Source: Candidatus Micrarchaeia archaeon (GTDB lineage Archaea; Micrarchaeota; Micrarchaeia; Anstonellales; Bilamarchaeaceae). From it: a stretch of DNA of 62,010 nt. Numbering within the stretch: the stretch's first letter is position 1; every line of letters starts with the position of its first letter. Positions 24,601 to 46,855 of this stretch are shown piece by piece. The position numbers and the translations under genes were made by a program. Where the stretch lies: NCBI GenBank assembly GCA_033853355.1, contig JAWOLP010000003.1:1-62010 (forward strand). The letters run 5' to 3'. The notes beneath the pieces were generated by a model. It saw only the letters and a list, made by a program, of their open reading frames with translations. It was not told where the DNA came from and searched no databases.

Positions 24601-27600
24601 ATCCTCGGTATTGTCTATCCTCCGGAGAAGCCTGGCCCTCGGGGCTTCTGAGAGGGTCGTGGTCGAGCCGTCCCGGAGAGTGATCCTCCGGCTCTGGTAT
24701 TCCGTCGGCATCCCCTGGAAGCCCTGCTCGCCCAGATGCTCCTCGACCGCCAGAGGGACCGCATTCGGCCTGGCTGCCTCGTCGCGGACGAAAGCCTCGG
24801 CCGCCTCCCTGCTCATGCCGCGGGCGCTCATCAGCTCCTGCGCCCGCGCCTGCTGCTGCGCGGTGAGCGGCTGCGCCTCCTGGCGCACGGCCTCGTTCGG
24901 AGCCCTCGGGACGGTCCTGCCCTCCTCGTGCGCGGCCGGCGGGGCTGTCGGCGCGAGCGCCTCCTCCCTCTCCCTGGCCAGCGAATCGAATCCCCTCGCG
25001 CGGTCCTCGAGCGCAGCGGCCCTCGCCTCTATCCTGGCGACGTCCTCCTCCATCTGGCTCCTTCTTCTCGCCAGCAGCTCCGGATCGTTCGCGAGGCGCG
25101 TCTCCTCCTCCCTGAATGACGACCTTGTCTGCTCGGCCTGATCGTGCAGCCCCCGCGCCTCCGCTCTCGCTCCGGCGGCCCTCTCCCTTATATCCGCGGG
25201 AGTGGCCCTCCGCCTATATGCGGCATCGATGCGGTCGGCGCTGTGCTCGAGCGCCGTGGCCCTGTTCTCGAGAGCTGTCGCACTCTCCAGCATCCCTTGC
25301 CTTTCGACATCGGAGTGGACAGTGCTCTGCGCGTCGCGCCTCAGCTCGAACGCCTGGTCCCTCATCCCCTGGGCATCGTTTCGGCGCCCCTCGGCATGCT
25401 CGGCAAGGTCCCTGGGGACCAGCTCCGGGCTCTCGATGACCGGCCTCACTTCGGTCGCATATCCCGCGTCCATCACTCTGGGATCCGCGGCGATGTCCGC
25501 GACATAGCTGGCCTTGCCCAACGCAAGCCTCAGCTCGGTCGGGGTGTCAGGGCCGCCCTGCGCCCTTGCCGCCCTCGCGAATTCAGGGTCGAACACGAGG
25601 TCGGAGACCTGGCTCCGGATCCTCTCCGGCACGTTCGCCAGGATCTCGTTGCGCCGCGCTTCGGGAAGGCTCGCGAAATCGGGATTCTCGCGGAGGATGC
25701 GTTCTGTATGAAATATCATGTCGCTGGCGGTCTCGACATGCTGCTGGGTGTACGTTATCGCCTCCTCGCCGCGCCCGATGGTGTAGGTCGCCTGCCCGTC
25801 CGGCGCGACCGCGCGCGAGGTGAAATTCGCGCTCTCTACGCGCGCGCGGAAAGCGCTCATGTCGGCCTCCGTCCTCCGCGTCTCCGCGGCGGCGCGCAGG
25901 CTCTCCATCCGCGTTCTCGGCTGGGCCTGCGGGGCCGGAGGCGCAGCCGCGCGCGTGGACGCTGTGAAAGCGTCGGCGGGTTCGGCTCCGCCGAGCCGGG
26001 CCCTGATGTAAGCCCGCTGCGCGTTGTCCAGAGGGAACGGCTGGCCGTTGTTCCCGCTCCTCTCGAATTCTTCGATCGAACTCACTCCACCGCTGTTCAT
26101 GGCCCGCTCGAACGCCTGGTAATTGTTCTCGCTCCTCGCTGATTCTATGGTGCGCCTGCCCGCTGGGCTCGCCGCGTACTCCTCGAAATTCCGCACCCCT
26201 CCCGCCGCGCGGGTGGCGTTGTAGTCCGACAGCACGCCGCGCTCGATGCTCGGGGCCAATGGGCGGTCCCCGAGGCTCGCCCTGTACGTGGTCCTCTCCG
26301 CGATCGGCATCCGGCCGATCTCGCCCTGGAGCCTGGAATAGTCGAGGGCCATGGCGTGCACTTCGCCGGACTGCATCGGGACCCCCAGCAGGCCGGCCTC
26401 TATGACCTGCCTCCATCTGGGGACGTACCTGGGGATGCCCTCCTCGCCGGGGGCCGAGCGTAGCTGCGCATATCTGGCCGCCACGAGCGGCTGGATGACC
26501 GTCTGGAAGCCGTAGAAGCTGGCCTCCCACCATGTCATGTCGCCGTTCTGGACGCTCCGTATCATCGAGGGCATCTGATATGCGAACTGCCCCGCGCCGC
26601 TCACGGCCAGCGCGTTGCCGGTAAGATGGATCGCCCTCTGCGCGATGCTGAGGTCCTCCGCTCCCCACGCCAGCTGCCATGCGCGCTGGCCGAACGAGAG
26701 GGTCCTCGTCGCCTGCGCCGCGGCGCTGGTCCCCTCCGTCCATGTGTTTATCGCCTCGATGGTCGCCCTGCTCGCGCCGGCCAACCTCGCCGCGTTCACC
26801 GCCTGCTCGGTCTCGTTCATCAGCGTGGCGGCCTCGTTCAGCGCGGCGGCTCCCCTTCCGGCGGCGGCCAATTCTCCTGCGAACGGGAGGACCGTCGTGA
26901 CGACCCCGACGCTCACTGTGAATATCGAACCTGCAGTCCACTTGCCCATCTGCTCCCGCTGCTCTATGCCCTCGGCGATGCCCATCGCGCCGACTCCGGC
27001 TGTGAGGACCAGCGACGCGCCGCCGGTCGCCGGGGCGGCCACGATGCCGACCGTCGCGACGGCGAATTTCCCGACGGCCACGGTAACGCGGTAAGCGCTC
27101 CTGTAGCGGCCCATGCTCGCCCTCGCATCGACCGTGGTCTGGTCGTTCGTGTCGACCCACTGCCCCTGCTGGTTCTGCACGAACGGGACGCTCGAGGCGA
27201 GCAACGTGGCCGAGCGGTCCAGGTCGGGGGCTTCGAACTGGATCTCTCCGGTGGCGGTGGAGACCGGAACGATATTCAGCCTGCCGATCGCGGAGAGGCC
27301 GGAATCCCTCGCGCTCCCCTGCCTCGCGGACATCCTGTCGAAGAAGACCTGCTGCGGGTCGGCGCCCCAGGGCGAATCGTGCGCGAATATCACGCTCTCC
27401 ACTTCGCCGTCGAGCTGCATGAACTGCGAATACGCCTCGTTCAGGGCGGCCGTCTGCTGCGGCGTGTTGTGCAGCCTGGAGAGGCCCCAGTATCCCTCGC
27501 CCTCGGCGTGGGTGGTGCTCAGCGAGCCGTCGTTGCCGTGCCACACCCTGCCGACGCCGAGCGTCGCGAGCTCGAGCGTGGTCCGGTCCTCCGCCCTCTG

Positions 27601-30600: not shown

Positions 30601-33033
30601 GGTGCGCTGAGTCTGGCGCTCCGGCGTGAGCCGGTCGGCCGGCACGCTCGCCATCCTCGCGTAGGTCACGGCCATGTCGAAGACGGCGTTGTAAGCGGTG
30701 GGATCCTCGCTCCGCGCGGCGCGGAGCGCCAGGTCGAAGTAGGCGCGGCTGTTTATTATCGCGCGGTAATTCCTGCCGGCGACGAGCGCGCTCTCGTAGA
30801 TGCCCCTCTGCTCGTAGACCGCGAGCACCCTGCCCGCGGCCGTGCGCTCCAGCTCGCCGGCGCTCATCTGCCTGCACGCTTCGAGCAGGCCGCGCTTGTC
30901 CTCGGTGGTGGTGAGCTTCGTGTAAGTGGTGGCGGCGTTCCGGTACGCGGTGCCGTCGTCCAGCCTTCCGGCTATGGTGGCGTCGATCGAGTATGTGAAT
31001 ATCTGCCCGAGGGCGGCCCGGTCCCCCCTGTTGTTGCGTATCGTCGTGACCATGGCCGTGCCGGTCGCCATCAGGTCGTCGGCCCTCTGCTGGACCGCGG
31101 CGTTGGCGTCGACATGGGCGAGGTAGGTGATCGCGGCCTCGTCATCGGCGAGGTTCAGGCTCTGGTCGCGCCGGGCCTCGGCGATCCGCCCCCTCATCAC
31201 CGCCGCGTACTGGGGATCCGAGCCCATCCTCGCGGCCATCCGCTGCCTCGTCGCATCTATCTCCTCCTGGGTGGCAGGCTCCTGGCCGGCGGCGAGCCGC
31301 GAGTTTATCCTCTCGAGCTCGGCTATCGCCCTCTCCATTCCGGGCCTCGCTTCCGCCGGGAGCCTGGGCAGCTCCGCCCTGAACTCCGCAGCGCGGTTCG
31401 AGCCGTCTATGTAAAGCATGACCGCCTGGATGTACTCAGGCCCCTGGGTCTCGAGATTGTGCGAGAGGGCCTCGGCATCCCTGCGCTTGTTCTCGTCCCC
31501 GCTGATGTACATCTCGGCGAGCGAGGACTGCGCCATCGCGATCCTCGGATCGCCGCCGCTCGAGAGCAGCGTGAGCCCGCGGTTGTAGATCGTCGTCGCG
31601 CCCTGGCGGACCGGATCGGCCACGTTCGAGCCCCTCCCCATCCGCGCGTTCATGCTCTTCTCTATCTCCACGGCCGCCCGCGCCCTCTGGAGATCGTCCG
31701 CCGTGGATTCCGCACCCAGCCTCCCGGATATGCCCTGGAGGAGGGTCGCGGTCTGGCCGCTCTCCCTCTCAGCGGCCCTGTTCAGCTCGCCGCTCAGCGA
31801 GCGCGAGAGGGTCCCCCTCAGCGTGCCCATCGCGGTCTGCACGTCCGCGGGCTCCATCCCCTCCCTCGTCGCCGCGGCGGCCTGGGCGACCACGTCCCTC
31901 CTGAAATTTGCCGAAGCTCGGTCCGGATGGTTCCGGATCTCTTCGGCCGCGAACATCATGACGTTGAAATCCCCGTAGCTCCCGCCCCGCGCGAGCATGT
32001 TGATCGCCGAGACGAACACCGCCTGCGCCTGGGGCCTTATCGCTTCCGGCGTGTCGTTGAGCTCGGTGACGGCGAGCTTGTAGGCGTTCACCCTCATCGC
32101 GAGGCGGCGCATCTCCTCGTCCGTGACCTGCTCGGGGTGCTCCCTGAGCCTGGTCTCCATGTCTCCTATGTCCCGCATTATCGCGAGGCCGGCATCCCGG
32201 AGCGGCCCGGTGGTCCCCTGGGCGAGCTCCTCTATGCGCTCCCCTTCCCGCCCGAAGGCCCAGGCAGCCCTCGTCCGCCGGTCGTCCTGGGCGCTCCTGA
32301 TCCCGTTCTCGACGTTGTCGAGCCTGGTCCCCGCCTCGGCGAGCCCCTGCGCGTCCATCGTCTGGCCCTGGCTTATGAAATTGACCGCCGAGCCAAGGGC
32401 TCCGAGCGCCTGCGCGCCGTCCCGGCTCATGAGGAAGTCCCTGTTCGAGAGGAACATGTTGACGCCGCGCATCATCGCGTCCCCCCTCTCCGTCTGCCCC
32501 GCGCCGTAAGCGTTCAGCGCGAACGTGACGTCCGAGAGGAGCGCGGTCGAGAGCTGGTTCGGCAGCCCGGCGACGTTTATCTGGCGCACCGCCGAGATAG
32601 CCTCGGGCAGGTGCTCCACCTGGCGCTGCGTCCGGCGGAATATCTCCGCCGCCTGGTCAGGATGCCCGGTCTCGAGGAGCTGCTTCGCGCGGTCGAGGTC
32701 CTGCTCCCACTGCTGGATGCGCGTCTCGACCCCGCCGAGCTGCTGGTGGGCCATGACGTCGAGGCCGGCTCTCATCTCGTCTATCCTGGAGCCGAGCCTC
32801 GCGCGCTCCTGCCGGTCGTTCAGCCCGAACCTCCGGTCGATGTCGCGGCCGACCGCGACGGCCGAGGCGGCGCTCCTCTCAGCGGCCTCGAGCGTGGTCA
32901 TGACCTGCGCGGTCGGAGGAGTCCTCTGGGCCTGCGGCGCGGCGAGCTGCCTCATTATGTCCTCGGCGGCCTCAAGGGGCCTGGCCGAGAAACCGCCTCC
33001 TCCCTCCCTTTCTCTCTGCGCTTGGGGTGACAT
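12685..33033 (-). CDS. Giant (6,782 aa) multi-domain membrane protein with three kinase-like modules
   Basis: A single uninterrupted 20,349-nt ORF. Every other long ORF in this span is a shadow with Arg/Pro/Gly-dominated composition. It contains the helical N-terminal third, a TM cluster, a coiled coil, PKL modules, Gly/Arg/Pro linkers and internal repeats listed under findings. Confidence 0.9.
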   Translation of the reverse strand: MSPQAQREREGGGGFSARPLEAAEDIMRQLAAPQAQRTPPTAQVMTTLEAAERSAASAVAVGRDIDRRFGLNDRQERARLGSRIDEMRAGLDVMAHQQLGGVETRIQQWEQDLDRAKQLLETGHPDQAAEIFRRTQRQVEHLPEAISAVRQINVAGLPNQLSTALLSDVTFALNAYGAGQTERGDAMMRGVNMFLSNRDFLMSRDGAQALGALGSAVNFISQGQTMDAQGLAEAGTRLDNVENGIRSAQDDRRTRAAWAFGREGERIEELAQGTTGPLRDAGLAIMRDIGDMETRLREHPEQVTDEEMRRLAMRVNAYKLAVTELNDTPEAIRPQAQAVFVSAINMLARGGSYGDFNVMMFAAEEIRNHPDRASANFRRDVVAQAAAATREGMEPADVQTAMGTLRGTLSRSLSGELNRAAERESGQTATLLQGISGRLGAESTADDLQRARAAVEIEKSMNARMGRGSNVADPVRQGATTIYNRGLTLLSSGGDPRIAMAQSSLAEMYISGDENKRRDAEALSHNLETQGPEYIQAVMLYIDGSNRAAEFRAELPRLPAEARPGMERAIAELERINSRLAAGQEPATQEEIDATRQRMAARMGSDPQYAAVMRGRIAEARRDQSLNLADDEAAITYLAHVDANAAVQQRADDLMATGTAMVTTIRNNRGDRAALGQIFTYSIDATIAGRLDDGTAYRNAATTYTKLTTTEDKRGLLEACRQMSAGELERTAAGRVLAVYEQRGIYESALVAGRNYRAIINSRAYFDLALRAARSEDPTAYNAVFDMAVTYARMASVPADRLTPERQTQRTEAMNYVEGQLGNYFGSRDFRISGRRISQIGTTWRADLSRVTDLPIPRAILSGGSVAQALGGGTDQAATDRGLNELNTRQGAITTHLRNSEDLEFLTTGVFGRSDAQNARSEAAWRREAARLHRQGDLAHARGDQVAERFYRRQEALADPAFMGTSRAAAERIYFQGRAEQNAALTFSTELNNVDSAPIADVNRRIGELIPQLPPQMQARANRLREEAGTDEGRTRQLYRFLLQQQVLQHSQNGELLIRTATGIRDGVASLDTSMTSVASRHRESGRFDATVAVRTFIGLGTGQRVNLLGEPVDEQGHPYPPGQPPPTPAQGAPIPVINPDRFLLAQRTLQVGTAVINQELSKTRQTQSLVAQGRQLQAQNVETIKGLINQMIDRVEDPATREGFRQNLTDAGNDLALLQEVYRQVGYATNTRTTDDSGHDYYDASQHDRNATSGINLAYAERFDASNSMLRRTRLGIRAASGRQQVWIDDANFRRQYGEMSPDNPFIGVVSTEAPVSQPGQTTTVPWLGVTPRPEVIDTLISHLPPSSEREQLRQRLSNIPAGPEGDAQRQGMMDELLNREVYDPNTQRQRRMGDVVGGGDLFYYHAVDYDGRFARNQALIESGQYDAAEAGLGQVEGEMSRAAAITRQDVNVTRTTIAAWSSRNSANHAGDEFQEAMPTDEDDVRGRGEVEDRNNALQQPISYLAGSMRRDGGDWDSARAANEDARDRLLAGGSILQVNPYLAMVMIEGIPADRMNEIGPNGRTYAQMHSDLLASMTGTPDWRRAQQLSGEIYGALSSNAADFRSGLNAARQSHLQGWDSSIDAQLEAAATTLEVGARHQQRVVGWEYARKFIRAGQQDLRSADQSQRYRLETSEEMRDEERAHGWAPHRYTDEAYREFAARRFEGAMAATSEQNDFRFYDMLVRNEAVAAPIYEFRGQPREWHDDSRHGGYAYITVYSDLRGNFGMGGRGGRSIGFADELGGLNYREARELTSFADDDIWDHVRPVMEQRAEDRTTLELATLGVGRVWHGNDGSLSTTHAEGEGYWGLSRLHNTPQQTAALNEAYSQFMQLDGEVESVIFAHDSPWGADPQQVFFDRMSARQGSARDSGLSAIGRLNIVPVSTATGEIQFEAPDLDRSATLLASSVPFVQNQQGQWVDTNDQTTVDARASMGRYRSAYRVTVAVGKFAVATVGIVAAPATGGASLVLTAGVGAMGIAEGIEQREQMGKWTAGSIFTVSVGVVTTVLPFAGELAAAGRGAAALNEAATLMNETEQAVNAARLAGASRATIEAINTWTEGTSAAAQATRTLSFGQRAWQLAWGAEDLSIAQRAIHLTGNALAVSGAGQFAYQMPSMIRSVQNGDMTWWEASFYGFQTVIQPLVAARYAQLRSAPGEEGIPRYVPRWRQVIEAGLLGVPMQSGEVHAMALDYSRLQGEIGRMPIAERTTYRASLGDRPLAPSIERGVLSDYNATRAAGGVRNFEEYAASPAGRRTIESARSENNYQAFERAMNSGGVSSIEEFERSGNNGQPFPLDNAQRAYIRARLGGAEPADAFTASTRAAAPPAPQAQPRTRMESLRAAAETRRTEADMSAFRARVESANFTSRAVAPDGQATYTIGRGEEAITYTQQHVETASDMIFHTERILRENPDFASLPEARRNEILANVPERIRSQVSDLVFDPEFARAARAQGGPDTPTELRLALGKASYVADIAADPRVMDAGYATEVRPVIESPELVPRDLAEHAEGRRNDAQGMRDQAFELRRDAQSTVHSDVERQGMLESATALENRATALEHSADRIDAAYRRRATPADIRERAAGARAEARGLHDQAEQTRSSFREEETRLANDPELLARRRSQMEEDVARIEARAAALEDRARGFDSLAREREEALAPTAPPAAHEEGRTVPRAPNEAVRQEAQPLTAQQQARAQELMSARGMSREAAEAFVRDEAARPNAVPLAVEEHLGEQGFQGMPTEYQSRRITLRDGSTTTLSEAPRARLLRRIDNTEDSVGSTAGVWEAEIMVDGQPRRVAVKVFKDPFNRGQPPTAEQWENLFGFVTGRPAAEGRPSTMGEAGNLDTIGGMTYRSPDGRELPVGPGFYRFVNVDGNIAIAMDLLPGMYIGDMNPTQIREFVRPETYQQIQRIGETLEANGYGMHDFQFIVVFPPEAQIPTGLSGAARRQFIENWHTTINGREVRAGDVVLMDAGGLYRAADEPHSTFSPTREADSARWTGNNVLINDHLARLTATATDAAAQPQARAQAQADLRAMEGFMREVEPNVRAEDPMGEVTRRYMLVGNRETRAAARLDEIRQTDPARAQEIEGAFRRFERDTGIPEGTLLPVRAGEVPAAAVREGTTGLPVEEQPTLVPTRPPEGQPVARRAGPEEVTTPGGRRVTPTATPEEVTTPGGRRRGGGGEGAPPAIGEGGGGPVAAPRGGGRGGPAARGEEIAHNVEDITTAEVARQRAQVESGMPPQSREVLDVAEALMGKRGDMSRTDARARLQEWEAARDPRAAAVERLTSTTSTVSRIFETASPVERAIFADEIARAPEGEPVERTLERAYDGIARMRPTPDTSAEMLAQARELGAMPDSAQRIEALKRTGRDELAGALDLAMRTRDPQVRERIGNEWEASRVARRREDSIAAARSARRPEDVAASDVAAIREFGRSRNMDPDLVDSIAHDYGQGGAEGRLRVLDGMGVRPFAAQRDSIARNEQIVESLQQRVNDLAPDDPARAPLERELNNRRTALQTERATLEANANGLFDLVVRGNLQQRIAGLPGFEDATITGVTHLGGLRGIYRVELSGGRHLFVKAEDVAPAAFGARMAQAEGLMSSGIHSGFSYDTGVAYTDPITGAPAQARQEFGIIEDIRTLVGRDVEIRLPDGRVQTQRVEGIEMVTDILAHPDPNNPVHRAFYELLSTPQGRQRIAEAWRAYQEMSRRAGLMDRYRRNSAFSLSRGSDNQVNITFQPIDTDGVGTRIYSRPETGRTDLSVFNRDFADGTAAFMLDLTRASQQAQGIGGTGGPLMQGGAVSLSQLHSDFFSPQAERGARLPADTPEMRARANAEIQSYDGQPFGIGFNAYNSAENPNIGDMVLQGGRLRIVERADGRVAMHADEQARVSDQLAAGQGEFVAGQRDMVNTELSTRITGVAERIARGESVSRDTPGYEIAEALARDPAFAGADQAARREMAARAIESATGEAVRPGAPAHEPSAPEIEIVEGEPTSASRRRGPQPPPLPQEVTPGMIEEVQPAAPPPQEQGVTTPSRGRRPSPPPAERAAVREVSDAEVNAFLARYREGLENAHAINADDPAFEFSNVMMERYRLPEGASFSEIRAANRRALEDLRNPSPELIAAAREVLARRAEPYAFEAYALRQAGQPPAPAAHEETTTPQRVRPPSPAAHEEVTTPARAGRAPEEAHVEPQPAPVVHERALSGPGELGNLAARAINNDPGAAADIAGINEAGRNAIEGYRRTVDGMLAQGTRRHGLIEFSVELTNAQNEVGGVSTALQWVAGAPGPGGRPGLVEFTEVYTNNAAAGHDDAVALFNKFPPEVQGLIRDFIAQRAGAHDETALARDFSGRITNEIQTRGTAASDEFFARYGIRPNAFEALAMRNLGPRAVDALMHFHTMPPEVQRLVGEFITARPNAFDEDALAQAYSQHIHGAFEAQGVQATYEAYRQSGNMPADPVEALTIRYLTQNGTVSPETLPHDQQMAAYNQAAEFRAMAREYAAGGRPITDVSDLALAARQAAPPTQMEAAALGYGNARNAAAAYRFVNDAARARAAQNGRPGSPTPEDYMFGAMLARTVGTREQPPARMEGVIGAFDPVENQGTPQAGIRAHVDVAVSTPDGVNLYVRVFSDRVTVIGADPQGVIGRAEWPGPDVQAAYIRYAQTRYGQQLNDAFEAAGRFIDDAAFRPESGVGRNERTAMLARARSAIEGHPDLVPARMGVDQITDAFQTNDGAARSNAEGGFRRLDRAHQDQVITELRFFGRRAEADYLSSIRRPEPADVVEAYRSGNPARVRQAQEDFARMPIERQQETLAQMRSQGLENRAGALAGRMIIDHFSTMDANHLDIVAQEFSRLQPEQQEAVVGELHRRGLHEGATYLNELGSLSRGPVGDAIGRIYGIGRNELTQIYANANNIQEARGALARRLGIELEPFAWANMPDRSWVSEPYRGFNRPEDDHFLFGMLLSGDMPGHVADIIRGMYPPGENAVGRIHSIEFHNGAVGAYEVRVEVTRQVERPGGVRENVTEMRTLYVKRQNLLPDAAGAEYSRATGIPAPEIHTATAEGDMRYTMADGTGTRYGILESMGDFRGTIRRGNLDIEVRARAEMGIRQVLELRSAYETLRTSTNEAERAQAQQMIDRFTPQQIQLYERVMGTLTSPDQAVRARFWEELGFTLTGSYAIGLWDRHEINLRVMDLEITQPLSDAQIAQMRREGTNVVRDPDGTLRIENPTVGGIDTDAAGVYMAQEIGGNYWFGNMNHRFGNTDLHRMFDVLSHVTGRSVPDLVHEAFGNVQISRDPHGAISITGDFNGGMAAGGRRFWTEFGNNATYRADITRRFNSHAGEPMGMGYPLGPVEIGMIRSPGGAAQFNSPQSGDPISFVIYDDGRSENRPSYEISYGSNLANIHPGILNMFRPGEEMLVFQVTPEIVAALPPEAGPRVGVIDYTGAGGAVVKRVGVIAANDPLAVQLQEAGVPLIRARRDIPPSTFAANRTELPPEVFTLGILRGDPGFSELTGINSTAVGPVPVFNGLMHAGQGFMNNQFVEIGGWILDRENAVRPNNPPPQPAPGNLHPAAPADAVAAPHPVDPQPHVSQGNINRASAPPPPPGEIPGTPGQAQPVPPQGGPGGTIRMGGAPPVASPGRIEVHGSDLIHPMSAQTYESALTAAPLNDRQRGYVRGHFTGEREPFELAVGNAVGIIKGLENINAIGTGPLEVRGYYDRTNGRVVQVGEGEVPPERRANAVEFTLTIDRQTGRITAVTEPMPRLADLGDLVGLQVMEGGGRGGGGGGRPPGGGGPGPRLGPEDVTPVVPVNISQIPTPRLDMNVPEQRGELASRLASTDPEVRRQAVNRFNSLPTQQEKDMVGADLAISLRLGDVNGLAQFARRVMPTESGAVRDQEATDQLAMLPQPVRDAVNRLAGSRRFRNNAQTPEALNRYLGERREQGIRGPGYAQVEGARMEINGAVDQILPTQQAEAANMGIPQQQPPLRVVGREVGQPAQPQEGMEPARAMGSNFFDPGGPFRRHVERSVIDGPVMRDDGSIRIRSSGGGGAPQVLHVSGMEGRAANEITLDRGGQVEIGRRIIAGDEIARARFNSLPPEQQQQIVAATMEEGVTIEGRQLRITSEEDVSAFARAVVRGDPQAVALREIMPEAMRSRFDALIADPALRMQAVIEPHYADIIPMIGRPGGMAELDAYLQRNAGIAPADLASAREMVLGSQQGREAVLNMARRTLNLEEPEGIADFARRLIANDPAAVERFNLLPRVVRGQIEQFRRNPNFLTQESKLRAAAGRVSNELLDMELRMGPEPAVAPGSTLERARDAGLRDLRRVNYYDQRLSEITVEEGGRLVVRDESAPGRVYRLNDAMLWEVTDPVFGTRAVRTSESGVLSFVLAQRYAAYRDGIYNRVLENEFNAQSQYRTIEEYRQHIESAIPQQLRTNFGRFGDINDSGALLASVMDFVRSAPNTRLTDAQMQFIANRISEQLGVGAVDITAMRVGDVRMQDLAGQVVRMAEAVVHDNSGRNRVYLWRDGGGFMAADAVLSQALGIDPPRGVLLNRVAFGQAGVGRTAAGRVDPVEATAFFDRTVGGMVETARQESASASGDRFASFNASLVRQIVARRASDPQFDAACTQMLGYLERSGVINPGSPVVFDGVLVDSSSRTLLPFTKALLESVYGERVHVDIQYFHVASGYEFLPNYNTPQQLIDNVESAGANNSFIRNNQDYGRLDTHGGVRMRDSLMYFLMLRNQAIQGNPQ
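17200..18000 (-). other. Atypical PKL module B of giant ORF 1 (DRHxxN catalytic loop)
   Basis: MRTLYVKRQNLLPDAAGAEYSRATGI ... YAIGLWDRHEINLRVM (codons at 17380-17397) ... VGGIDTDAAGVY (17221-17253). The DRHxxN plus (I/V)D pattern is the PI3K/PI4K-type kinase signature. Confidence 0.5.
21650..22300 (-). other. Atypical PKL module A of giant ORF 1 (degenerate catalytic loop)
   Basis: GGRHLFVKAEDVAPAAFGARMAQAEGL ... GLMDRYRRNSAFSL ... FQPIDTDGVG. It is colinear with module B, but the His of DRHxxN is replaced (DRYRRN). Confidence 0.4.
23990..24600 (-). other. Protein-kinase-like (PKL) domain K1 of giant ORF 1
   Basis: GSTAGVWEAEIMVDGQPRRVAVKVFKD (Gly-loop plus VAxK Lys), IAIAMDLLPG (hinge), GMHDFQFIV (catalytic Asp) and GDVVLMDAGG (metal-binding Asp). 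This is a RIO/Bud32/APH-like pattern. Confidence 0.55.
26850..27095 (-). other. Transmembrane module of giant ORF 1 (AAPxTGGxS motif)
   Basis: YRVTVAVGKFAVATVGIVAAPATGGASLVLTAGVGAMGIAEGI...WTAGSIFTVSVGVVTTVLPFAGELAAAG is the only strongly hydrophobic cluster in the protein. It is homologous to 38650-39170. Confidence 0.65.
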
Positions 33034-33037
33034 GGGA

Positions 33038-33394
33038 TCACTTCGCGTAGTTGTAGCAGATGTCGCTGAATTCCCTGAGGATCTCGACCCTCGAGTTCAT
33101 GTCCTCTTTCTTGGCCATGGCGAGGAGCATCTTCTTCTCCCAGTTGGCCAGCGCGTCGTGGAAATACCGCAGGCGCTCTATGCGCGGCTTGTAATCCACA
33201 GGCTTGTCCTTCGATGCATCCCAGACCGCGATCGCGTTCTCGATCGCCGAGAGGGCCTTGTTCGCCTTCTCAAGGGCGTCCTTCTCGAGTCCTTCGACGT
33301 CGGAGAAATCGTACTGCTGCGCGCGGCTCTTGGCTGCGGCCGCCGGCGCTTTCTGTGGAGCTGCTTTCTTCACGACCATTCGATGCACCGCCAT
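33038..33394 (-). CDS. Small helical partner protein of giant ORF 1 (paralog of 35084-35419)
   Basis: 118 aa. Its stop lies 4 nt before the giant ORF ATG. LEKANKALSAIENAIAVWDASKDKPVDYKPRIERLRYFHDALANWEKK...VEILREFSDICYNY aligns with the partner of giant ORF 2. An alternative start (M6, 33379) fits the TATA at about 33402-33415 better. Confidence 0.75.
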   Translation of the reverse strand: MAVHRMVVKKAAPQKAPAAAAKSRAQQYDFSDVEGLEKDALEKANKALSAIENAIAVWDASKDKPVDYKPRIERLRYFHDALANWEKKMLLAMAKKEDMNSRVEILREFSDICYNYAK

Positions 33395-33401
33395 TTTCCG
33401 G

Positions 33402-33438
33402 ATATATTATATAGTATTCTATCGGTGCGTTTAAATAG
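33402..33438 (-). promoter_or_regulatory. Putative promoter of the partner / giant ORF 1 / small ORF operon
   Basis: On the minus strand the region reads CTATTTAAAC...ACTATATAATATATCC immediately upstream of the partner gene. It is the only AT-rich stretch between the HEAT gene stop and the partner start. Confidence 0.45.
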
Positions 33439-33523
33439 TGATTCACGAAAAAACGTCCTGAAAGCCGGCCCTCTCCGGTTGCAGGCGGCGCGATCGCCGC
33501 GAGCCCGAAAATGACCGGTGAAT

Positions 33524-34381
33524 TCACATCCTTCCGGCCAGCGCGAGCGCGTACGTCCGGTCATCCTCATCGAGCGATTTCGAGCCGATGACCTGGAGGT
33601 TGCCCTTCATGCCGAGGGAGGCGAGGGCGTCCATCGCCTTCCTGCGCAGCTCGCGGTCGGCCGAGTGGGCCGCGAAGGCGTTCATCATGTTGAGGTTCCC
33701 CCGGTATCTCCTGAAATCCTTGGCGAGCGAGGCGAGGCAGAAATCCCTCACGTCCGGATGGAACGCCGAGGAGGCGAGATGCTCGACCGCGGCCCTGTTG
33801 CCGCTCTCGACGAAATGCCTGGCCACCTTCATCCTGATCCCCGCGTCCTCCGAAGAATTGGCGAGTGCGAAGAGGGGAGCCGCGTCGTTCTCCCGCACGA
33901 GCGAATCCGCCTGCGCCTCCAGCACCCGCATGGCGTTATGCCGCGAGCGCGGGTCCGCGGACCTCTGCCTGTATTCGAGGAGCTCGGAGCGGAGCCTCAT
34001 GGCAGAGAGGCGCTCCAGCGCCCCTGATGCGATGTCCCCGTGCCCGCTGGACATGCATGCTATCAGCGACCGCCAGTCCTTCCTCGAGGCTAGCTCGTCC
34101 AGCGAGGCCTTCCTCAGGCTTCCGTCCTCTGATGAGAGGCACTGCTGGACCAGGTAAGCCGCGTCGCGCCCCCCCAGAGGGCCTGCATCGCCGGCGGTCG
34201 CGCCGAAAGCGGACGGGGCCGCGATGCTCTCCAGCATGGGGGCCGGCGGCTGGCGCGGCCTGAAATCGTCGATGCGCAGGACCTTCCCACCCTCACGCCT
34301 CCCCCAGAGCCTCATACCGTCTTTCTTAGGATGCGAACGTATTACAATGCCTTCCAATTCCCCGCTCCCGCCCCGTGCCAT
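33524..34381 (-). CDS. HEAT-repeat protein
   Basis: Repeated HEAT-like units: DPRSRHNAMRVLEAQ, DAGIRMKVARHFVESG, HPDVRDFCLASLAK, DRELRRKAMDALASLG and DEDDRTYALALAGRM. The ATG at 34381 (MARGGSG) is chosen because the AT-rich TATA region 34392-34412 lies inside the longer track ORF. Confidence 0.65.
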   Translation of the reverse strand: MARGGSGELEGIVIRSHPKKDGMRLWGRREGGKVLRIDDFRPRQPPAPMLESIAAPSAFGATAGDAGPLGGRDAAYLVQQCLSSEDGSLRKASLDELASRKDWRSLIACMSSGHGDIASGALERLSAMRLRSELLEYRQRSADPRSRHNAMRVLEAQADSLVRENDAAPLFALANSSEDAGIRMKVARHFVESGNRAAVEHLASSAFHPDVRDFCLASLAKDFRRYRGNLNMMNAFAAHSADRELRRKAMDALASLGMKGNLQVIGSKSLDEDDRTYALALAGRM

Positions 34382-34391
34382 GCGTTTTTTG

Positions 34392-34446
34392 TGTTTAAAT
34401 ATGTTTAAAAAAGATTTGTTAGCGCTTGCTAACATATTAAATAGCC
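34392..34446. promoter_or_regulatory. AT-rich bidirectional control region of the giant-protein locus, with a palindrome
   Basis: TTTAAATA (34394-34401) and TTTAAAAAA (34404-34412) lie between the divergent starts at 34381 and 34447. The palindrome TGTTAGC-GCTT-GCTAACA occupies 34417-34434, between the TATA and the plus-strand start. Confidence 0.5.
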
Positions 34447-35079
34447 ATGAACAGAATGCTTCTCATGGCTGGCGAATCCGTTGACTCCGGGCGGCTCGAA
34501 CTCATGCTCGCCGGGGCTGAGGGCAACGTCGAGGGGGCGTACGGTTTCTTCTCGATGATGCTCAAGAACGACGAGAAGCGGGCGCCTGAATCCTTGCGCG
34601 AGGACAAGCTGTCATCGGTCAAGGCCGACATGGACGGGGCGGACCGGAACGTGGCCGCCCTCTTCAGGCTGGTCGTCGAGCGGTACTTCGAGGACCAGGC
34701 GGCCGGGATCGCCCCTGCCGGAGGCTATTCCGCCGACAACCAGTCCAGGCTGATCAAGGCGAGCGTCCTCCTGCTCATGAGCGTCCGCGTCCGCCGGATG
34801 GAGCATCTCGCGCGAGCGGGCTCCACCATCTCTTTCCTCTCGATGCTCAAGAGCCTCAGCGCCAAGCTCCTCTCGTTCAGCGCAAGCGCCCCGGAGCAGC
34901 CGCTTGAGAACGTCTACGCTTTCTACCATTACGACGCCTACCCGCTCCTGCGGGCGCTTTGCGAGGCCAGCGGGCTGGGCTACTCCCGAGAGCTCGGCGC
35001 TGCGCTCGCAGAGCCGCAGATCAAAGGCGACATCTCGCGGATGCTGGACGAAGCGCTCAAAGGATATTACAAAGGATGA
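34447..35079 (+). CDS. Hypothetical protein (first gene of the giant ORF 2 operon)
   Basis: 210 aa with helical composition. No family recognised. It ends 4 nt before the small partner gene. Confidence 0.6.
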   Translation: MNRMLLMAGESVDSGRLELMLAGAEGNVEGAYGFFSMMLKNDEKRAPESLREDKLSSVKADMDGADRNVAALFRLVVERYFEDQAAGIAPAGGYSADNQSRLIKASVLLLMSVRVRRMEHLARAGSTISFLSMLKSLSAKLLSFSASAPEQPLENVYAFYHYDAYPLLRALCEASGLGYSRELGAALAEPQIKGDISRMLDEALKGYYKG

Positions 35080-35083
35080 CTCT

Positions 35084-35419
35084 ATGGCCAGAAGAATCGC
35101 GGTCCCCTCGCGCGGGGCACGGAGCCAGCGCGCCTTGCCTGGGCACGTGGACGAGGGCAACATCGACAGCGTGGAGGAGGAGACGCTGGAGAAGGTCGGA
35201 AAGACCCTCTCGGCGCTCGAGCTGGCTCTCGCGAGCTGGGATGCGGCGAAGGAGAAGCCGGAGTCCCTGCGGCCCAAGTTCGCCAAATACCGCCTCCTCC
35301 ATGACATGCTCATCCAGTGGCAGAAGAAGGCCCAGAGAGCGGCAGGGAAGAAGGCCGCCTTCGAAAAGAAGGTCGCGGTCCTCTGGGATTTCGTGGACAT
35401 CTGCCGCGACTATTCCTGA
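35084..35419 (+). CDS. Small helical partner protein of giant ORF 2 (paralog of 33038-33394)
   Basis: 111 aa, LEKVGKTLSALELALASWDAAKEKPESLRPKFAKYRLLHDMLIQWQKK...VAVLWDFVDICRDY. Its stop lies 9 nt before the giant ORF 2 start, and GAGGTG at 35417-35422 serves as the Shine-Dalgarno element for that start. Confidence 0.75.
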   Translation: MARRIAVPSRGARSQRALPGHVDEGNIDSVEEETLEKVGKTLSALELALASWDAAKEKPESLRPKFAKYRLLHDMLIQWQKKAQRAAGKKAAFEKKVAVLWDFVDICRDYS

Positions 35420-35428
35420 GGTGTCTTC

Positions 35429-38400
35429 TTGGGAACCCCTAACATGAGGCCGGAAGAAGCTGCGAGAGATGCAGACGCGGCCATCGCGCAGCAGCTGCGC
35501 CCCCAGGCGCGCGCGGTCGTCCCCCAGCTCACCCCCTCCGGCTTCGCCTCGCGCGCGGACGAGCAGGTCGGCTCGCTCTCGCAGCACGCGTCCTCGCTCG
35601 GGCGCACGCTCCCCTCACGGATCACGGACGTCGGCGCATTCCTCGCCTCAGAGCCGCTGCGCTCGGCACGAGCGGGCCTGGAGCAGGGCATCGGCATGAT
35701 GCAGGGCACGGTCACCTCCAACCCGCCGCTCGATCCGTCGGTCTTCTTCCCGAACCGCCTGGAGCGGTCGGCCTTCCTCCGCGACGGCTCCCCATTCCTG
35801 ATCATCGACCCGGCCCACGACGCCCGGTTCGCCGACTTCCTGTCCGGGAGGAGCGGCTCGTACCGCGGAAGCGGGCGGGCGGAGTCTGAGTGGGTGGCCG
35901 CGCACGCGGCGGAGCTGGAGCGGCGGGGCATCCGGGTGGAGCGGGGCCAGGGCGACTCGTTCACGCTCACGAACGGCGCCTTCGACCGCTCGCTCTCGGG
36001 AGGCGTCCTCAGCGGGCCGGACTTCGAGCGGTTCATCGCGGCAGGGGTGCCCTCGATCAGCGGGGAGGATCCGGCCAAGGCGAGATGGCTCTCGGAGCAC
36101 GCGGACATCCTCATCGAGCACGGGATCGACGTGCAGGTCGAGGGGAACCGCTTCACGCTGCGGAACAGCGGATTCCGCACCATCGGAGTGGACCCTTCCC
36201 AGTTCGAGGGCAGCGGCTTCCGCGGCACCGCCTTCGACTCGTTCGTCGACGGCCGCGCCCCGACGTTCGAGGGCAACAACCTCGCCCAGGCCAGATGGAT
36301 AGCCGAGCGCCAGCAGCAGCTCATGCAGTCGGGGATACACGTCTACCTTTCCCTGAACCAGCGGGGGGAGCCCAGCGGGCGCTTCGTCCTCCAGAACACA
36401 GCCTTCCTGCCTCCATCGGCCGGCACGTCCCAGCGCGAGGCCCTCTCGAGGAGCCTCGACGACGCGCGGGCCGATATGGGGATGGCCGACACCTACTTCG
36501 CCCGGGCCGGGGAGCTGTGGCGGACCGGGAGGCCGCAGGATCAGCAGCGGGCGAGGGAGCTCGCGTCCGCCGGCATGCAGCTGATAGACCGGGCGCAGCG
36601 CCTCCTCGGCTCGGTCGCCGCGTATGTCGAGACCTCGAGGGTCGTCTATGACCGGCGCGCCGAGATCGAGTCCCTCCCGCCCGACGAGAAGCGCCGCTGC
36701 CTCTCGCTGATAGAGAACGCCGACGCCCTCATCGCGCAGAGCCGGACCGCGGACGACGCCGCGGCGCGCATCGAATACACGCGCCGCGCCGGTTTCCTCC
36801 TCCAGATGGTCGGCGCGACCCTCTATCTCCGCCAGACCGAAGGCATGCTCCCCCCGCAGGTCCGCACCGATGCCGCAGGCTTCCTCAGCTCGGCGATGGA
36901 CATCTATTCGCAGGGCACCTCCGATTCCCTCGAACGGGCGTCCTTCATGCTGGGCCAGGCGAACTCCTTCCTGACGTTCTCGATAGAGCGGGCCGGCATC
37001 CAGGCCCAGTACGACGAAGTCCGGAACCTCGACGCCTACGTGGACGTCACGAGGATGCCGCTATTCCAGACGTCCGGGCGCTTCGACGAGGAAAAGTTCC
37101 AGAGGCTCACCGGCGTGACGTACGCGCAGTACCGGGACGGCATACGCGGCCAGAGCCGGAGGGGGATCGCCACGGTGGCCGCGGCCCTCTACCGCCGCTC
37201 CCTCGACCATTACGACTCCGCGCTCGCGGAGATGCGTGGGCTGATCGCATACTCGGCCGCGAACGAGACGCCGGACAACGGCAGGGTCAGGGCGTCGCTG
37301 GAGACGATCCAGCGCGAGCACGAGATAGGCAGCCTCAACTTCGTCCGGACCGCGCAGCTGGATCCCCTGATATCGTCCGCCCGGACGCTGTCCTCGGTCG
37401 TCCAGCGCCTTCCGACCGAGCGCGACATCGGCGCCCTCTACATGAGCGCGGAAGGGTCGGCCGAGCTGCGCGACTCGCGCGCCGCGGCGATGCGGGCGTA
37501 CTCGCGCGAGCTCGGCACGATAAGCGCCGGCTTCCTCTACCTGCTCTCGGCCCAGAACTCCGAGGGGGCGGAGCGCGAGTCGCTTGAAGGCTCCGCGCGG
37601 GCGGTCCTCTCAAGGGCCGGGGCCGAGAACCAGGCATTCATGGACGCGGCCAACGCGTTCAACGACATGTTCAGCAAGACCTCCTCGTTCATCGCGCACG
37701 TGCAGGGCTCGCTCCTCGACGGGGAGACCGCGTCGCTCTATGGCGAAGAGCTCCTGAGGATCGGGGGCGACCACCTGCAGCAGCTCCTGCAGAACCCGGA
37801 CCTCTCCCGCCCGTATTTCCTGCGCGCCGTGACGGACCCGTCGTTCCTGCCCAGCCTCCCTCACCGCGACGAGCTGATGAGCAACGTCACGCGGCTCGGA
37901 AGGGGCGACCGCCAGAACGCGATCGCGATACTGACAGCCCTCTACGACCCGAACGCGACGCCCGAGCAGGTCCGCAACGCGCTCGGCCTGCTCTCCGCCG
38001 GCGAGATGACGATCGAGACCGCGGCGATGCCGCCCGGGGGGATGCCCCCCGAAGGGATGTCTCGCGAGGACCGCATGCGCGAGTACGGGACCGTCACCAG
38101 GGCTATGCCGGTCCTCGATGCGCTGCGCGAGGTGAACCCGGAGCTCGCGGCGCGGTTCGAGAGGATGCGGGAGCATCCGGAGAGCTTCTCGATCGACCAG
38201 CGCAGGGAGCTGATACTCGCTCTCGTGCGCATGGTCGGCGACGAGCCTGTGAACCGCGCCCTAGACCACATCGAGACATACCTCCGGGACACGTTCAGGG
38301 AAGTCTTCACGGCCCACGCGCAGGACCTCTACGACCGCGCGCGGAACATGGAGCCGAACGCGAGAGGCATGCAGGAAGACGCGAGGCTGATCCTCTCCCG

Positions 38401-41400
38401 CCTGCGGCCCAGCGACATCACGATAAACCGCAGCGGCGGAAGGACCACCGTCGAGCTCGCGGACCCATTGGCCCGCGACGCATACGCGAGGCTCATGGAC
38501 GGCGCCGCAGCCGTGCAGTCCATACCGGAGGAGATGGCGAGCCTCGTGCCCAGGCTGATGGAGAGGCTCGGTCCGGTCTCGCGCGAGGCCGCCACGCGCG
38601 TGGCGGACGCGGAGAGGATATACCAGGAGAGGGTCGACGAGGCCGAGGCGCGGAGAAGGACGATAATCGTCTGCGCGGTCATCGGCGGCCTCATCGCGGC
38701 GCCATTCACCGGCGGCATGAGCGTCTGGGCGGCTGTGGGGACCATAAGCCTGGGCGTCGGGATAGGGATGGGGATCCCCTCGGTCGCCTTCGCGGTGGAG
38801 GATTACGTGAAGGTCAGGGACGACCCGAATGCCACGCCCGAGCAGGTGTCCGCGGCCCGCAACCACATGTGGCGCGAGATCGGGTTCAACGCGGTGATGC
38901 TGCTCCCGGTCGTCGGCCAGGCCGGGCGGGCATGGGCCGTCGGCCGTGGGCTCTTCACGCTGGCGCGGATAGGGTACGGCCTCGAGATCGCCGGAGGCAT
39001 AGGCATGGTCGGCTTCGGCGCATACCAGACGTACGAGGGCGTCCAGATGATCCGGCATGGCGATACCGGCTGGGGGATATTCAACGCGGCCACCGGGGCG
39101 CTGTTCATGTTCGGAGGCGCCCATGCGGCGTACAGCGGCGCGCGGAGCTGGGGATCCCTCGGCAGGCTCGCGCCGGCCATGCTCGCTCCGGAGGCCATAG
39201 CCAGGGACGTCACAGCGCTGGAGGAAGGGGCGGCGGCTTTCCGGCGAGTGGCCGCGGGCGAGCAAATCTCGATCTCCGCCGACCGGCTCGCCGAGATCAA
39301 TGCGGCCGGCCGCAGGCTCAGGGACATGGTGCAGGCTGGGATGCGGCTCGAGCCGGCCCAGATGCAGGCCCTCAACGCGTACCGCGCCCTCATGGAGGTC
39401 CAGCCTGCCAGGGACCTGCGCACCTTGCGGACGATGAGCGAAGGCACCTCGTTCCGGCGGGCGGCGCGCGGGGCTTACGAGACGATCCTGCGGAGGAACC
39501 GGCTCGCCTCGACCGAGGAATTCGTCGATGCGATAGCGGCGAGGGACCGCCTGCGCGCGCTGGGCCGCATCCGGCCGAACACGCCGGCCGAGGCCGAAGC
39601 CCTCAGGAACTTCGACCGCTACGTCGCGGCCCAGGCGAACACGGACGCCCAGGCGCTCTCCTCGTTCGGCCAGAGGGTGAGGGCGGGGGGCGCTCCGCTC
39701 AGCGTGGGCGAAATCGCGGCGGCGCGCACGGCATACGACCGGCTCTCGCTCGGCGTGCAGGAGGCCGGGACGGCGACGCCCCAGCAGGTCGCCGCGATGC
39801 GGGCCTACCGCACCGCGATGAGCGAGGTCGGCCGCTCGAGGATGGCGCAGGACGCGCAGGGGCTCGCCTCGGGGATAGCCCCCGCGATCGAGGCGACGAC
39901 CGACTCGCAGGAGATCGCGCGCTCGGTCATACGGGCGAGGCTCCTCCGCGGCGACGGCGAGTTCCTCATCCCAGGCGAGACGATCGCGGGCTACCGGCTG
40001 AGCGTGGGCGACATAGAGGGCGAGATACGCGCCCTGGGCCGGGATTTCGCCCTCAGCGGGAATCCCCAGCAGGTGCTCACGATCGCGGGCGACAAGCAGC
40101 TCCTCAACCAGATAAACGACGTGTTCGGCAGGGATGGCGGCAACGTCTCGCTGTCGCTCTACCGCTCGGCGATCCAGGACGGGGTCGGCTCGTCCATCCG
40201 CGGCATGCGGGGGGCCCGCGCCTTCTTCGTGCGCTCCGCCGAGAGCGGGGACGAGGTCACCGTCTACATAATGGGCCGCAACCTGCGCGGGCTCGACCCG
40301 GCCGCGGTGTCCAGGTCGCTCGAGGAGGCGACCGGATCCGTGGCGGCTCAGGCGGCGGCCGCGCGGATAAGGGGCGACGTCACCCTCGCGGACGCGTTCG
40401 AGAGGTGGACGGGCAGCAGGGACGTCCGGCTTTTCGTGAGCGGGGATTTCAGGTTCTCCTCAGTCGAGGATTTCACGCTCGCCGCTTCGATGGACGAGAG
40501 CTCGCTGACCAGGATGGTGACGCATGCCGAGGAGATCCCGACCTACCGGCGCGTGGCGGACTCGCTCAACCTGAGCCCTGACGCGGTCGCTGCCGAGATA
40601 CGCATGCCGGCCGGGACCACGAGCGCGATAACCGATGCCGAAGTGAGGAGGAACGCGGCCGCGCTGGCCGGAGGGGAAGAGAGCTTCAGCCGCCTCCCGC
40701 CCGCCGACCAGACCGCATACCTGCGCGAGGCCCGCAGCAGGATAACGTTCCAGTCGGCCGACGCGGTGGAGTTCAGGTTCACGATCACCGATCCGGCGGC
40801 CCAGGCGGTCGTGCGGCAGGAGATGGCGACGGCCACCAGGAAAGCCTACGCCGAAGTGGCCACGAACTCGTTCGCTGGCACCGGGCTGAACACCTTCCTG
40901 GGCCACCCCCGCGCGAACGCGATCTACAATGCGCGCAACGACGCGATAGCGTCGGTGGTGCAGGCCGGGCTTCCGGACGGCGTGAGGATCAGGACGTTCG
41001 GCAATTTCGGGCCGGTCCTCATCGAAGGCGGCACGCCGGTCCAGCGCCTGTCGGTCATGCGGAGCATCGAGCAGGCGACGCGGGCCAACCTCAGGTCGCT
41101 GGCTGCGGGAGGGAGGAGCCTCGGGCTCGACGTCCAGGTGGTCGGCGTGAGCATAAGCGCGCCGATGAACTACGATTCCATAAGCGCCGCGCTCATCTCC
41201 AGCCGTCTGGGCATCGGCCACACCGTGAGCCTGCCCTCCCTGGAGAGCGCGACTTTCGGGATAGGGTTCATCCGCGGGCCTCGGGGGCTGTCCGATTTCG
41301 CCCACCTCGACCGCCTCAGCGACCGCATCTACGGCGACCTGATGGCGGCCGTGCCGGAGGCTTCGAGGGCCAGGTACCCCAGCATGCAGGAGTTCGCCGA

Positions 41401-46799: not shown

Positions 46800-46855
46800 G
46801 CTTTCCGCGGCGATGTTTTTAATGAATGTCCTATATTTACTCCCAAGTGATCCCT

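Follow-up and report, generated by a model that had tools for sequence, protein, structure and literature searches.

The first 62,010 nt of contig JAWOLP010000003.1 (GenBank assembly GCA_033853355.1, Candidatus Micrarchaeia archaeon), hereafter the window, carry two divergent units in which a gene for a small protein of about 110 aa (small1, small2) is followed directly by a giant open reading frame (ORF; giants g1, g2). A preliminary description of this locus, made from the letters alone, had proposed a dedicated partnership between each small protein and the giant encoded next to it. Here we follow up that proposal by computational analysis of the window and of related loci. The two pairs comprise the following features.

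33038 to 33394, minus strand: small1, candidate partner protein of type A, 118 aa from ATG 33394, likelier 113 aa from ATG 33379.
33034 to 33044, minus strand: small1/g1 junction, with a Shine-Dalgarno (SD)-like GAAGTGA (33038-33044) that includes the stop TGA, then a 4-nt spacer and ATG 33033.
12685 to 33033, minus strand: g1, 6782 aa, 0.4% Lys and 0.03% Cys.
35084 to 35419, plus strand: small2, candidate partner protein of type B, 111 aa.
35418 to 35423, plus strand: SD element GAGGTG, overlapping the small2 stop and 5 nt before TTG 35429.
35429 to 43858, plus strand: g2, 2809 aa from TTG; ATG 35444, in the same frame, is an alternative start; 0.4% Lys.

ORF listing and translation agreed with the preliminary description on the coordinates of both pairs and on the 4- and 9-nt gaps within them. 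The small1 stop TGA occupies 33038-33040 and the g1 ATG lies at 33033, a gap of 4 nt; the small2 stop occupies 35417-35419 and the g2 TTG lies at 35429, a gap of 9 nt. The GAGGTG element reported for the second junction was likewise found, and consists of the last two bases of the small2 stop followed by GGTG; the TGAGGTG junction is identical at two related loci (L020 and L022). Translation of g2 could alternatively begin at ATG 35444. TTG 35429 is favored because the SD spacing fits and because called starts at two related loci, L025 (TTG) and L005 (GTG), adjoin the small-gene stop. For small1, the stop stood and the proposed start at 33394 gave way. The protein probably begins at the second ATG, 33379, because GGTG lies 6 nt upstream (33386-33389) as in most family members, because the database gene call (P0001, 113 aa) begins at M6, and because the resulting N-terminus, MVVKK..., matches the family consensus M-x-K-K/R. 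The pattern GGTG-N5-9-ATG is found 5' of the starts of most members.

Small1 and small2 are paralogous, as had been proposed, with 38% identity over 104 aa (BLASTP, E = 3e-25), and a hidden Markov model (HMM) of the family detected exactly these two copies in the window. A word-indexed search returned 39 close relatives, all 99-140 aa long and none annotated. Searching 1.84 billion cluster representatives exhaustively with a profile enlarged the family to 206 clusters, counted at 50% identity, at E <= 1e-3; the 150 members listed are all stand-alone proteins of 72-184 aa. Where a related locus carries an organism name, it is always 'Candidatus Micrarchaeota' or 'Micrarchaeia'. At E <= 0.1, the sole Pfam match for small1 was a sub-threshold one to DUF2344 and small2 had none, NCBIfam and PADLOC contained no matching family, and PDB sequences gave no significant match (best E = 0.16, flagellin). 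The family is undescribed in available libraries and literature, and literature searches on Micrarchaeota and DPANN giant proteins, lysine-poor giants and small partners turned up no account of the small-giant pair. We also considered, and rejected, an origin of the small protein as a freed copy of a giant-internal repeat: the family HMM scored g2 at only E = 2.2 and did not match g1.

The earlier expectation of a disordered basic N-terminus followed by a helical bundle agrees with an AlphaFold2 model built from a 40-sequence alignment (mean predicted local distance difference test [pLDDT] 87). Residues 1-29 are modeled as disordered and are basic and lysine-rich, and helices predicted at 30-60, 66-94 and 99-117 form a long antiparallel three-helix bundle. 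Foldseek searches of PDB and of BFVD viral models returned only generic three-helix bundles (E >= 0.15), with syntaxin Habc and designed three-helix bundles as the top PDB matches. Among close relatives, E52, W85, L106, F109, I112 and C113 are invariant; in a broader set of 118 diverse members, conservation of at least 90% is confined to W85, L106, E37 and the start Met. A turn motif first described as an invariant W-D-A was overstated, and is better written W-[DENQK]-[AS...]: in close relatives the Trp is conserved at 90% or more, D, E, N, Q or K follows, and the third position is mostly A or S and rarely Gly. Helix 1 is conserved at nearly every position and on both faces in these relatives, which suggests that one face lies in the core and the other may lie against a partner.

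If the small protein serves the giant, the two genes should be found together wherever the family occurs. We inspected 21 distinct loci, the window's two included. At 18 the size of the downstream ORF could be judged, and in 18 of 18 it is a giant (range >1100 to 7058 aa) directly 3' of the small gene. At two further loci the ORF is cut by the contig end and at one there is no downstream DNA, leaving no counterexample; homologs lacking an adjacent giant, which the preliminary description had named as evidence against a partnership, were thus absent among the 21 loci, with distant members (profile E ~1e-12) included. Complete giants have 1828-7058 aa, and the others, from >1100 to >3300 aa, reach the end of the retrieved sequence. 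The ORFs downstream of six close relatives have 7058, 5597, 2185, >2469, 2230 and >2082 aa. Ten species-representative genomes were retrieved by a single peptide pattern from the close-relative alignment (A1), three of which repeat known loci (L012 = L003, L013 = the P0015 contig, L016 = L001). Of the seven new loci, five carry ORFs, 2182 to >3300 aa long, that continue to the limit of the retrieved sequence, and one lies on a short contig that stops after 476 aa of the downstream ORF. At the seventh (L011, 10354-20354), an apparent 388-aa ORF belongs to a chain of at least five lysine-poor ORF pieces that run in shifting frames across the 10 kb of downstream sequence retrieved; the gene is a giant gene broken by frameshifts. 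The locus comes from a long-read-derived metagenome-assembled genome, and the frameshifts are either assembly errors or those of a pseudogene. Three distant members (P0170, P0150 and P0180, profile E 1e-12 to 1e-13) precede ORFs of >1436, 2032 and >1183 aa, and two small2-like members precede a complete 1828-aa ORF and an ORF cut at the contig end.

Across the 18 loci, the giant starts between -4 and +21 nt from the small-gene stop, and most junctions have an SD-like GGTG, GTGA or GGAG at or beside that stop. Because both genes lie on one strand, at this spacing and with a ribosome-binding site that overlaps the stop, small protein and giant are very probably made from one mRNA by coupled translation, in the same place and at the same time. 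A closer connection is conceivable in which the two are one protein, stop read-through or frameshifting fusing the small ORF to the giant as its N-terminal domain. Small2 and g2 do share a frame with a single TGA between them, as do the pairs at L025 and L027. However, in-frame junctions number 7 of 20, no more than the one-third expected by chance, so that conserved read-through is not supported. Gaps of 1, 2, 4, 5, 7, 11 and -4 nt occur, TGA, TAG and TAA are all used as small-gene stops, and the giant start has conserved SD-like elements and start codons. We consider a fused product extremely unlikely.

Small-protein subtype provides a second line of evidence. Of 116 diverse members, half resemble small2 more closely than small1. 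Relatives nearest to small2 (P0041, P0051, P0039 and P0078) are 46-53% identical to it, against 36-38% to small1, and each window protein is closer to relatives in other genomes than to its paralog. Because the closest relatives of each lie in other genomes, the two cassettes of the window represent two ancient lineages; from the initial picture of pairing conserved after duplication, paralogy and pairing were upheld and a recent duplication was not. The N-terminus of the L027 giant, encoded after the small2-like P0078, resembles that of g2 (MR..PEE... FFPNR... RGSG), and giants after P0039 and P0051 share a [KR]P[DE][DE] opening. Partner subtype thus tracks the N-terminal subtype of the giant, as in the pairs small2/g2, P0078/L027 and P0039/L005. 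Type-B small proteins accompany type-B giants, that is, those with a g2-like N-terminus, and pairing therefore predates the subfamily split. The small protein changes at half the rate of the giants: compared over the same pairs of genomes, mean identity is 58% for its core and 29% for the giants. Such a difference argues that whatever constrains the partner is itself better conserved than the body of the giant.

Conservation far above that of the giant would also be expected of a protein that contacts conserved machinery to control transcription, transcript processivity or translation of the giant gene, its basic tail resting on nucleic acid in the manner of an autoregulator or an anti-termination-like factor. 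The basic disordered tail is in keeping with such a role, as is the place of the small gene as first or second in its operon with a promoter-like region of its own. Against this, the predicted helices, 19-31 residues long and packed antiparallel, correspond to no helix-turn-helix or other recognizable DNA-binding fold, and neither Pfam nor NCBIfam gave a match to a helix-turn-helix family, a known archaeal regulator or any other regulator. Moreover, small-protein subtype tracks the protein sequence of the giant N-terminus, and a regulator needs no coupled 1:1 translation. We therefore regard control of giant expression as an unlikely role.

The giants have no significant family match in Pfam (14 giant segments included), NCBIfam or PADLOC; weak Pfam matches to Peptidase_M24 and SelO were seen at E ~1e-3. 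G1 has no hydrophobic or signal-peptide-like N-terminus and no transmembrane-like segment; g2 has no signal peptide and one marginal transmembrane-like segment. Three parts of the giants are listed here.

32284 to 33033, minus strand: N-terminal ~250-aa domain of g1, the sole part common to all type-A giants and candidate docking region for small1.
23899 to 24738, minus strand: kinase-like module of g1, aa 2766-3045, with Lys kept in a VAVK motif (alignment A5, HMM).
42626 to 43519, plus strand: kinase-like module of g2, aa 2400-2697, homologous to the g1 module (alignments A5 and A6).

The match of g1 to the giants of L003, L006 and L010 is restricted to aa ~13-250 (BLASTP), and this N-terminal domain displays clear conserved motifs at 11 loci (alignment A3). 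With the giants of L014, L018, L001, L008 and L017, g1 aligns over ~2500 residues at 23-31% identity. Residues 1500-2060 of g2 are shared with L006, L003, L010 and the second L008 giant, and residues 4881-5573 of g1 with that same second L008 giant. Because modules recur in different combinations, the giants are mosaics behind a common N-terminal handle, and their conserved N-terminal domain followed by shuffled downstream modules is the architecture of polymorphic effectors or toxins. A homolog search with the N-terminal 260 aa of g1 returned nothing, the query itself included; the giants are apparently absent from that database. G2 also contains three tandem ~60-aa repeats at aa ~150-330 (~35880-36420, plus strand; ...A(R)W(L/I)xE...GIxV...F(T/V)LxNxxF), and the L027 giant shares the FFPNR...RGSG segment that precedes them.

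The kinase-like module is common to g1, g2 and the giants of L014 and L019. The g1 and g2 copies are 24% identical over 298 aa (BLASTP, E = 2e-8), and the motifs G-S-x-G-V, VAVK, (H)DFQF and GDVVxxD(A/V)(G/S)G are conserved in the four giants; the VAVK Lys of g1 is conserved with L014 and L019. The module has no kinase match in Pfam or PDB sequences. Its AlphaFold2 model reached a pLDDT of only 47, and the top 50 Foldseek matches, nearly all of them protein kinases, had E >= 0.03 and template modeling (TM) scores of ~0.2, none significant. A second module, around g1 aa 3560-3900, looks kinase-like by motif. G2 aa 2122-2184 (41792-41980, plus strand) gave a weak GNAT match of 21.7 bits against a Pfam gathering threshold of 20.7; if real, a lysine-acetylating GNAT module inside a lysine-free protein would be notable.

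Giants that look mosaic and effector-like, with enzyme-like modules, could call for an immunity protein or antitoxin that neutralizes such a module, for example the kinase-like or GNAT-like one, in the producer cell, and small neutralizing proteins often adjoin genes of this kind. The kinase-like module is, however, absent from several partnered giants. The small protein is conserved irrespective of the modules in its giant: partners of the L003, L006 and L010 giants are 66-70% identical to small1, although these giants match g1 in nothing beyond the N-terminal 250 aa. Immunity genes, moreover, are usually downstream and change along with the toxin, and the small gene is upstream. An immunity function is accordingly very unlikely and, like read-through, poorly compatible with the data.

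Amino acid composition adds a further contrast within the pairs. Both window giants contain 0.4% Lys, compared with 5.3% in 16 other window ORFs, together with less than 0.1% Cys and 11% Arg. Lysine-free giants also occur at L001, L008, L014, L017, L018, L019 and L027, and this state is not a composition effect, because it is present at 47-51% GC and absent from other giants at 55-65% GC. The few lysines that are conserved between lysine-free giants (g1 K2836, K2839, K3613 and K1186) fall in the kinase-like motifs or a similar FVK motif. The partner proteins contain 11-13% Lys against 0.4% in the giants; the partner is therefore probably outside the final environment of the giant, and would be a released helper, not a permanent subunit. 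We take the contrast as a hint that the partner stays behind, and one only as good as the reason for the lysine purge.

A small protein that instead remained on the N-terminal domain as a structural subunit, a permanent light chain or telethonin-like cap, might join or orient giants in a larger assembly. The genomic evidence for such a cap is the same as for a dedicated helper, tight coupling suggests roughly equal amounts of the two proteins, and conservation on both faces of helix 1 is as expected for a stable helix-helix interface. If the purge reflects the destination of the giant, though, a permanent subunit should have been purged too, and the partners of lysine-free giants are lysine-rich. 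We hold a permanent cap to be a tentative alternative of low probability.

Lysine deserts are a described means of avoiding lysine-directed tagging (PMC10665810). One speculative and rather improbable extension of the released-helper idea has the small protein serve as the targeting adaptor in an archaeal pathway, so far undescribed, for delivering giants into host cells. It would dock on the N-terminal handle of mosaic giant effectors with kinase-like and acetyltransferase-like modules and stay behind, and the giants, stripped of all but catalytic lysines, would escape lysine-directed tagging or degradation in the host. The same reasoning has been put forward for lysine deserts and for lysine-poor toxins.

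Our preferred interpretation, to which we give a probability of roughly 55%, is that the ~110-aa protein is a dedicated partner, chaperone or adaptor, of the giant encoded next, and binds the N-terminal region of that giant. The pairing at all 18 loci with a downstream ORF of measurable size and the co-varying subtypes support the partnership first proposed. In the mechanism we envisage, the three-helix bundle would bind the N-terminal region of the giant. For type A, the docking site would be the ~250-aa domain; for type B, it would be another N-terminal region, one that goes with the small2 subtype. Binding would begin once this region leaves the ribosome, minutes before the chain of 2800-6800 residues is complete. 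By holding or capping the N-terminal handle, the small protein could serve as a chaperone or, in the role of an adaptor, pass the giant on to conserved cellular machinery, and would afterward be released.

Several points weigh against this interpretation. The contact between small protein and giant is one that we infer, and adjacency with co-diversification is equally expected of a regulator or of any co-inherited operon partner. The modeled fold, a helical bundle of generic type, has no relative that would inform on function. The giant N-termini at L022 and L024, the most distant members, bear no visible likeness to those of type A or type B, so that no single conserved docking peptide is demonstrated. 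About half of the giants have normal lysine, which limits the lysine argument to the lysine-free class, and the inspected loci cover only ~21 of the 206 clusters.

The surroundings of the two pairs include putative promoters and two further genes.

33402 to 33437, minus strand: A/T-rich TATA-like elements 5' of small1 (CTATATAATATAT at 33402-33414 and TATTTAAA at 33430-33437), read from the sequence.
33524 to 34435, minus strand: HEAT-repeat protein gene, 303 aa from the first ATG, with a possible internal ATG at 34381 (Pfam HEAT_2, E = 5e-8).
34394 to 34413, strand not assigned: A/T-rich TTTAAATATGTTTAAAAAAG between the divergent HEAT gene and orf210, read from the sequence.
34447 to 35079, plus strand: orf210, 210 aa, 4 nt 5' of small2.

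The elements at 33402-33437 are likely the archaeal promoter of the small1-g1 transcript; similar TTTATAAA or TATAAA elements lie 40-60 nt 5' of small genes at other loci. Orf210 is probably the first gene of an orf210-small2-g2 operon, because it ends only 4 nt before small2, and TTTAAATATGTTTAAAAAAG is the likely TATA region for that operon. No Pfam, NCBIfam or PADLOC family matched orf210, and its assignment to a ~185-aa family found 5' of the small gene elsewhere was dropped, as neither BLAST nor HMM comparison supported it. The HEAT gene shares the strand of small1, lies 5' of it and separates the two divergent units. A HEAT_2 gene is also found directly 5' of the small gene at a distant locus (L024, 9035-9610); the HEAT gene could be a coincidence or a third component of the pair. 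A second unannotated family, of ~165-260 aa, is divergent 5' of the small gene at L001 (8384-9058), L003 (9122-9679) and L006 (5575-6369), with four tandem paralogs at L008 (7526-9862), and was not detected anywhere in the window.

Beside the giant locus, the window encodes a DHH-family phosphoesterase (45465-46799, minus strand) and prolyl-tRNA synthetase (46826-48292, plus strand). The DHH/prolyl-tRNA synthetase neighborhood, with DUF350 elsewhere, is also found at L006, L025 and the P0015 contig. Its presence in several genomes indicates that the cassette occupies a conserved chromosomal position and is not mobile-island-like. Just past the 3' end of g1 lies a convergent ankyrin-repeat gene (11600-12322, plus strand; Ank_2, E = 2e-42). 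Ankyrin repeats are uncommon in archaea. The window also contains one tRNA-Val, and its upstream TATA-like A/T boxes are of archaeal character.

Like other DPANN archaea, Micrarchaeota are found attached to host cells, which they manipulate by means that are little understood. The giant genes make up a sizeable share of a ~1-Mb genome and lack annotation. A partner protein would make the function of lysine-free giants experimentally approachable: the small conserved protein is a marker for giant loci in metagenomes and an easily expressed bait for mapping the N-terminal handle of the giant and the machinery that receives it. The pair would also be an archaeal counterpart to a bacterial rule by which large polymorphic effectors come with small upstream helpers.

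Dedicated small partners of large or exported proteins are known from several systems. FliS, the chaperone of flagellin, the class chaperones of type III secretion and the Eag (DUF1795) proteins of type VI secretion are small helpers encoded beside their clients that bind an N- or C-terminal segment, block premature folding or aggregation, and stay behind. None is homologous to the small protein: Pfam gave no match to FliS (PF02561), and Foldseek matches to FliS-flagellin had probabilities of 0.11-0.13 and TM scores of 0.24-0.26. In eukaryotes, telethonin (titin-cap) is a small protein dedicated to the N-terminus of the giant titin, which it meets through a beta-sheet interface to Ig domains; the two are not operon-linked, and the likeness is one of analogy only. 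WXG100/ESAT-6-like proteins (PF06013) gave no profile match to small1 or small2. They are two-helix hairpins with a W-x-G turn, whereas the small protein has three predicted helices and W-[DENQK]-[AS...].

Among giants, a close comparison is with the SPEARE proteins of Nanohaloarchaeota, which are thought to mediate host interaction and combine Sec signal peptides and membrane anchors with Ig-like domains, beta-propellers and a VirB4-like ATPase (PMC10266531). Both are multi-thousand-residue proteins of DPANN archaea. The giants described here differ in having no signal peptide, no transmembrane segment apart from the marginal one in g2, no significant Pfam domain and, in 14 segments, none of the SPEARE Pfam domains, and in being, in many cases, lysine-free; the accessible portion of the SPEARE description mentions no small upstream partner.

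For the arrangement as a whole, the nearest parallel is Lap1/Lap2, ~100-aa all-helical proteins encoded directly 5' of the LXG toxins of type VIIb secretion, whose N-terminal domain they bind to stabilize and target the toxin (PMC9600955, PMC10801868). In both cases a small helical protein is encoded 5' of a large polymorphic protein whose N-terminal domain is conserved and whose body varies. The two have no sequence or family relation, however, and the small proteins lack a DUF3130 or DUF3958 Pfam match. Lap is a helical hairpin and the small protein, as modeled, an archaeal three-helix bundle whose binding we infer. Pfam found no LXG domain in 14 segments of the giants, which have 2000-7000 aa, and no type VII/FtsK/SpoIIIE-type ATPase was seen in Pfam scans of the giants and of four neighboring and ten flanking ORFs or in the gene tables of related loci, although no dedicated search was made. 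A small helper encoded 5' of a large mosaic protein is thus already known from bacteria, and the Micrarchaeota pair is a non-homologous archaeal variant of that arrangement.

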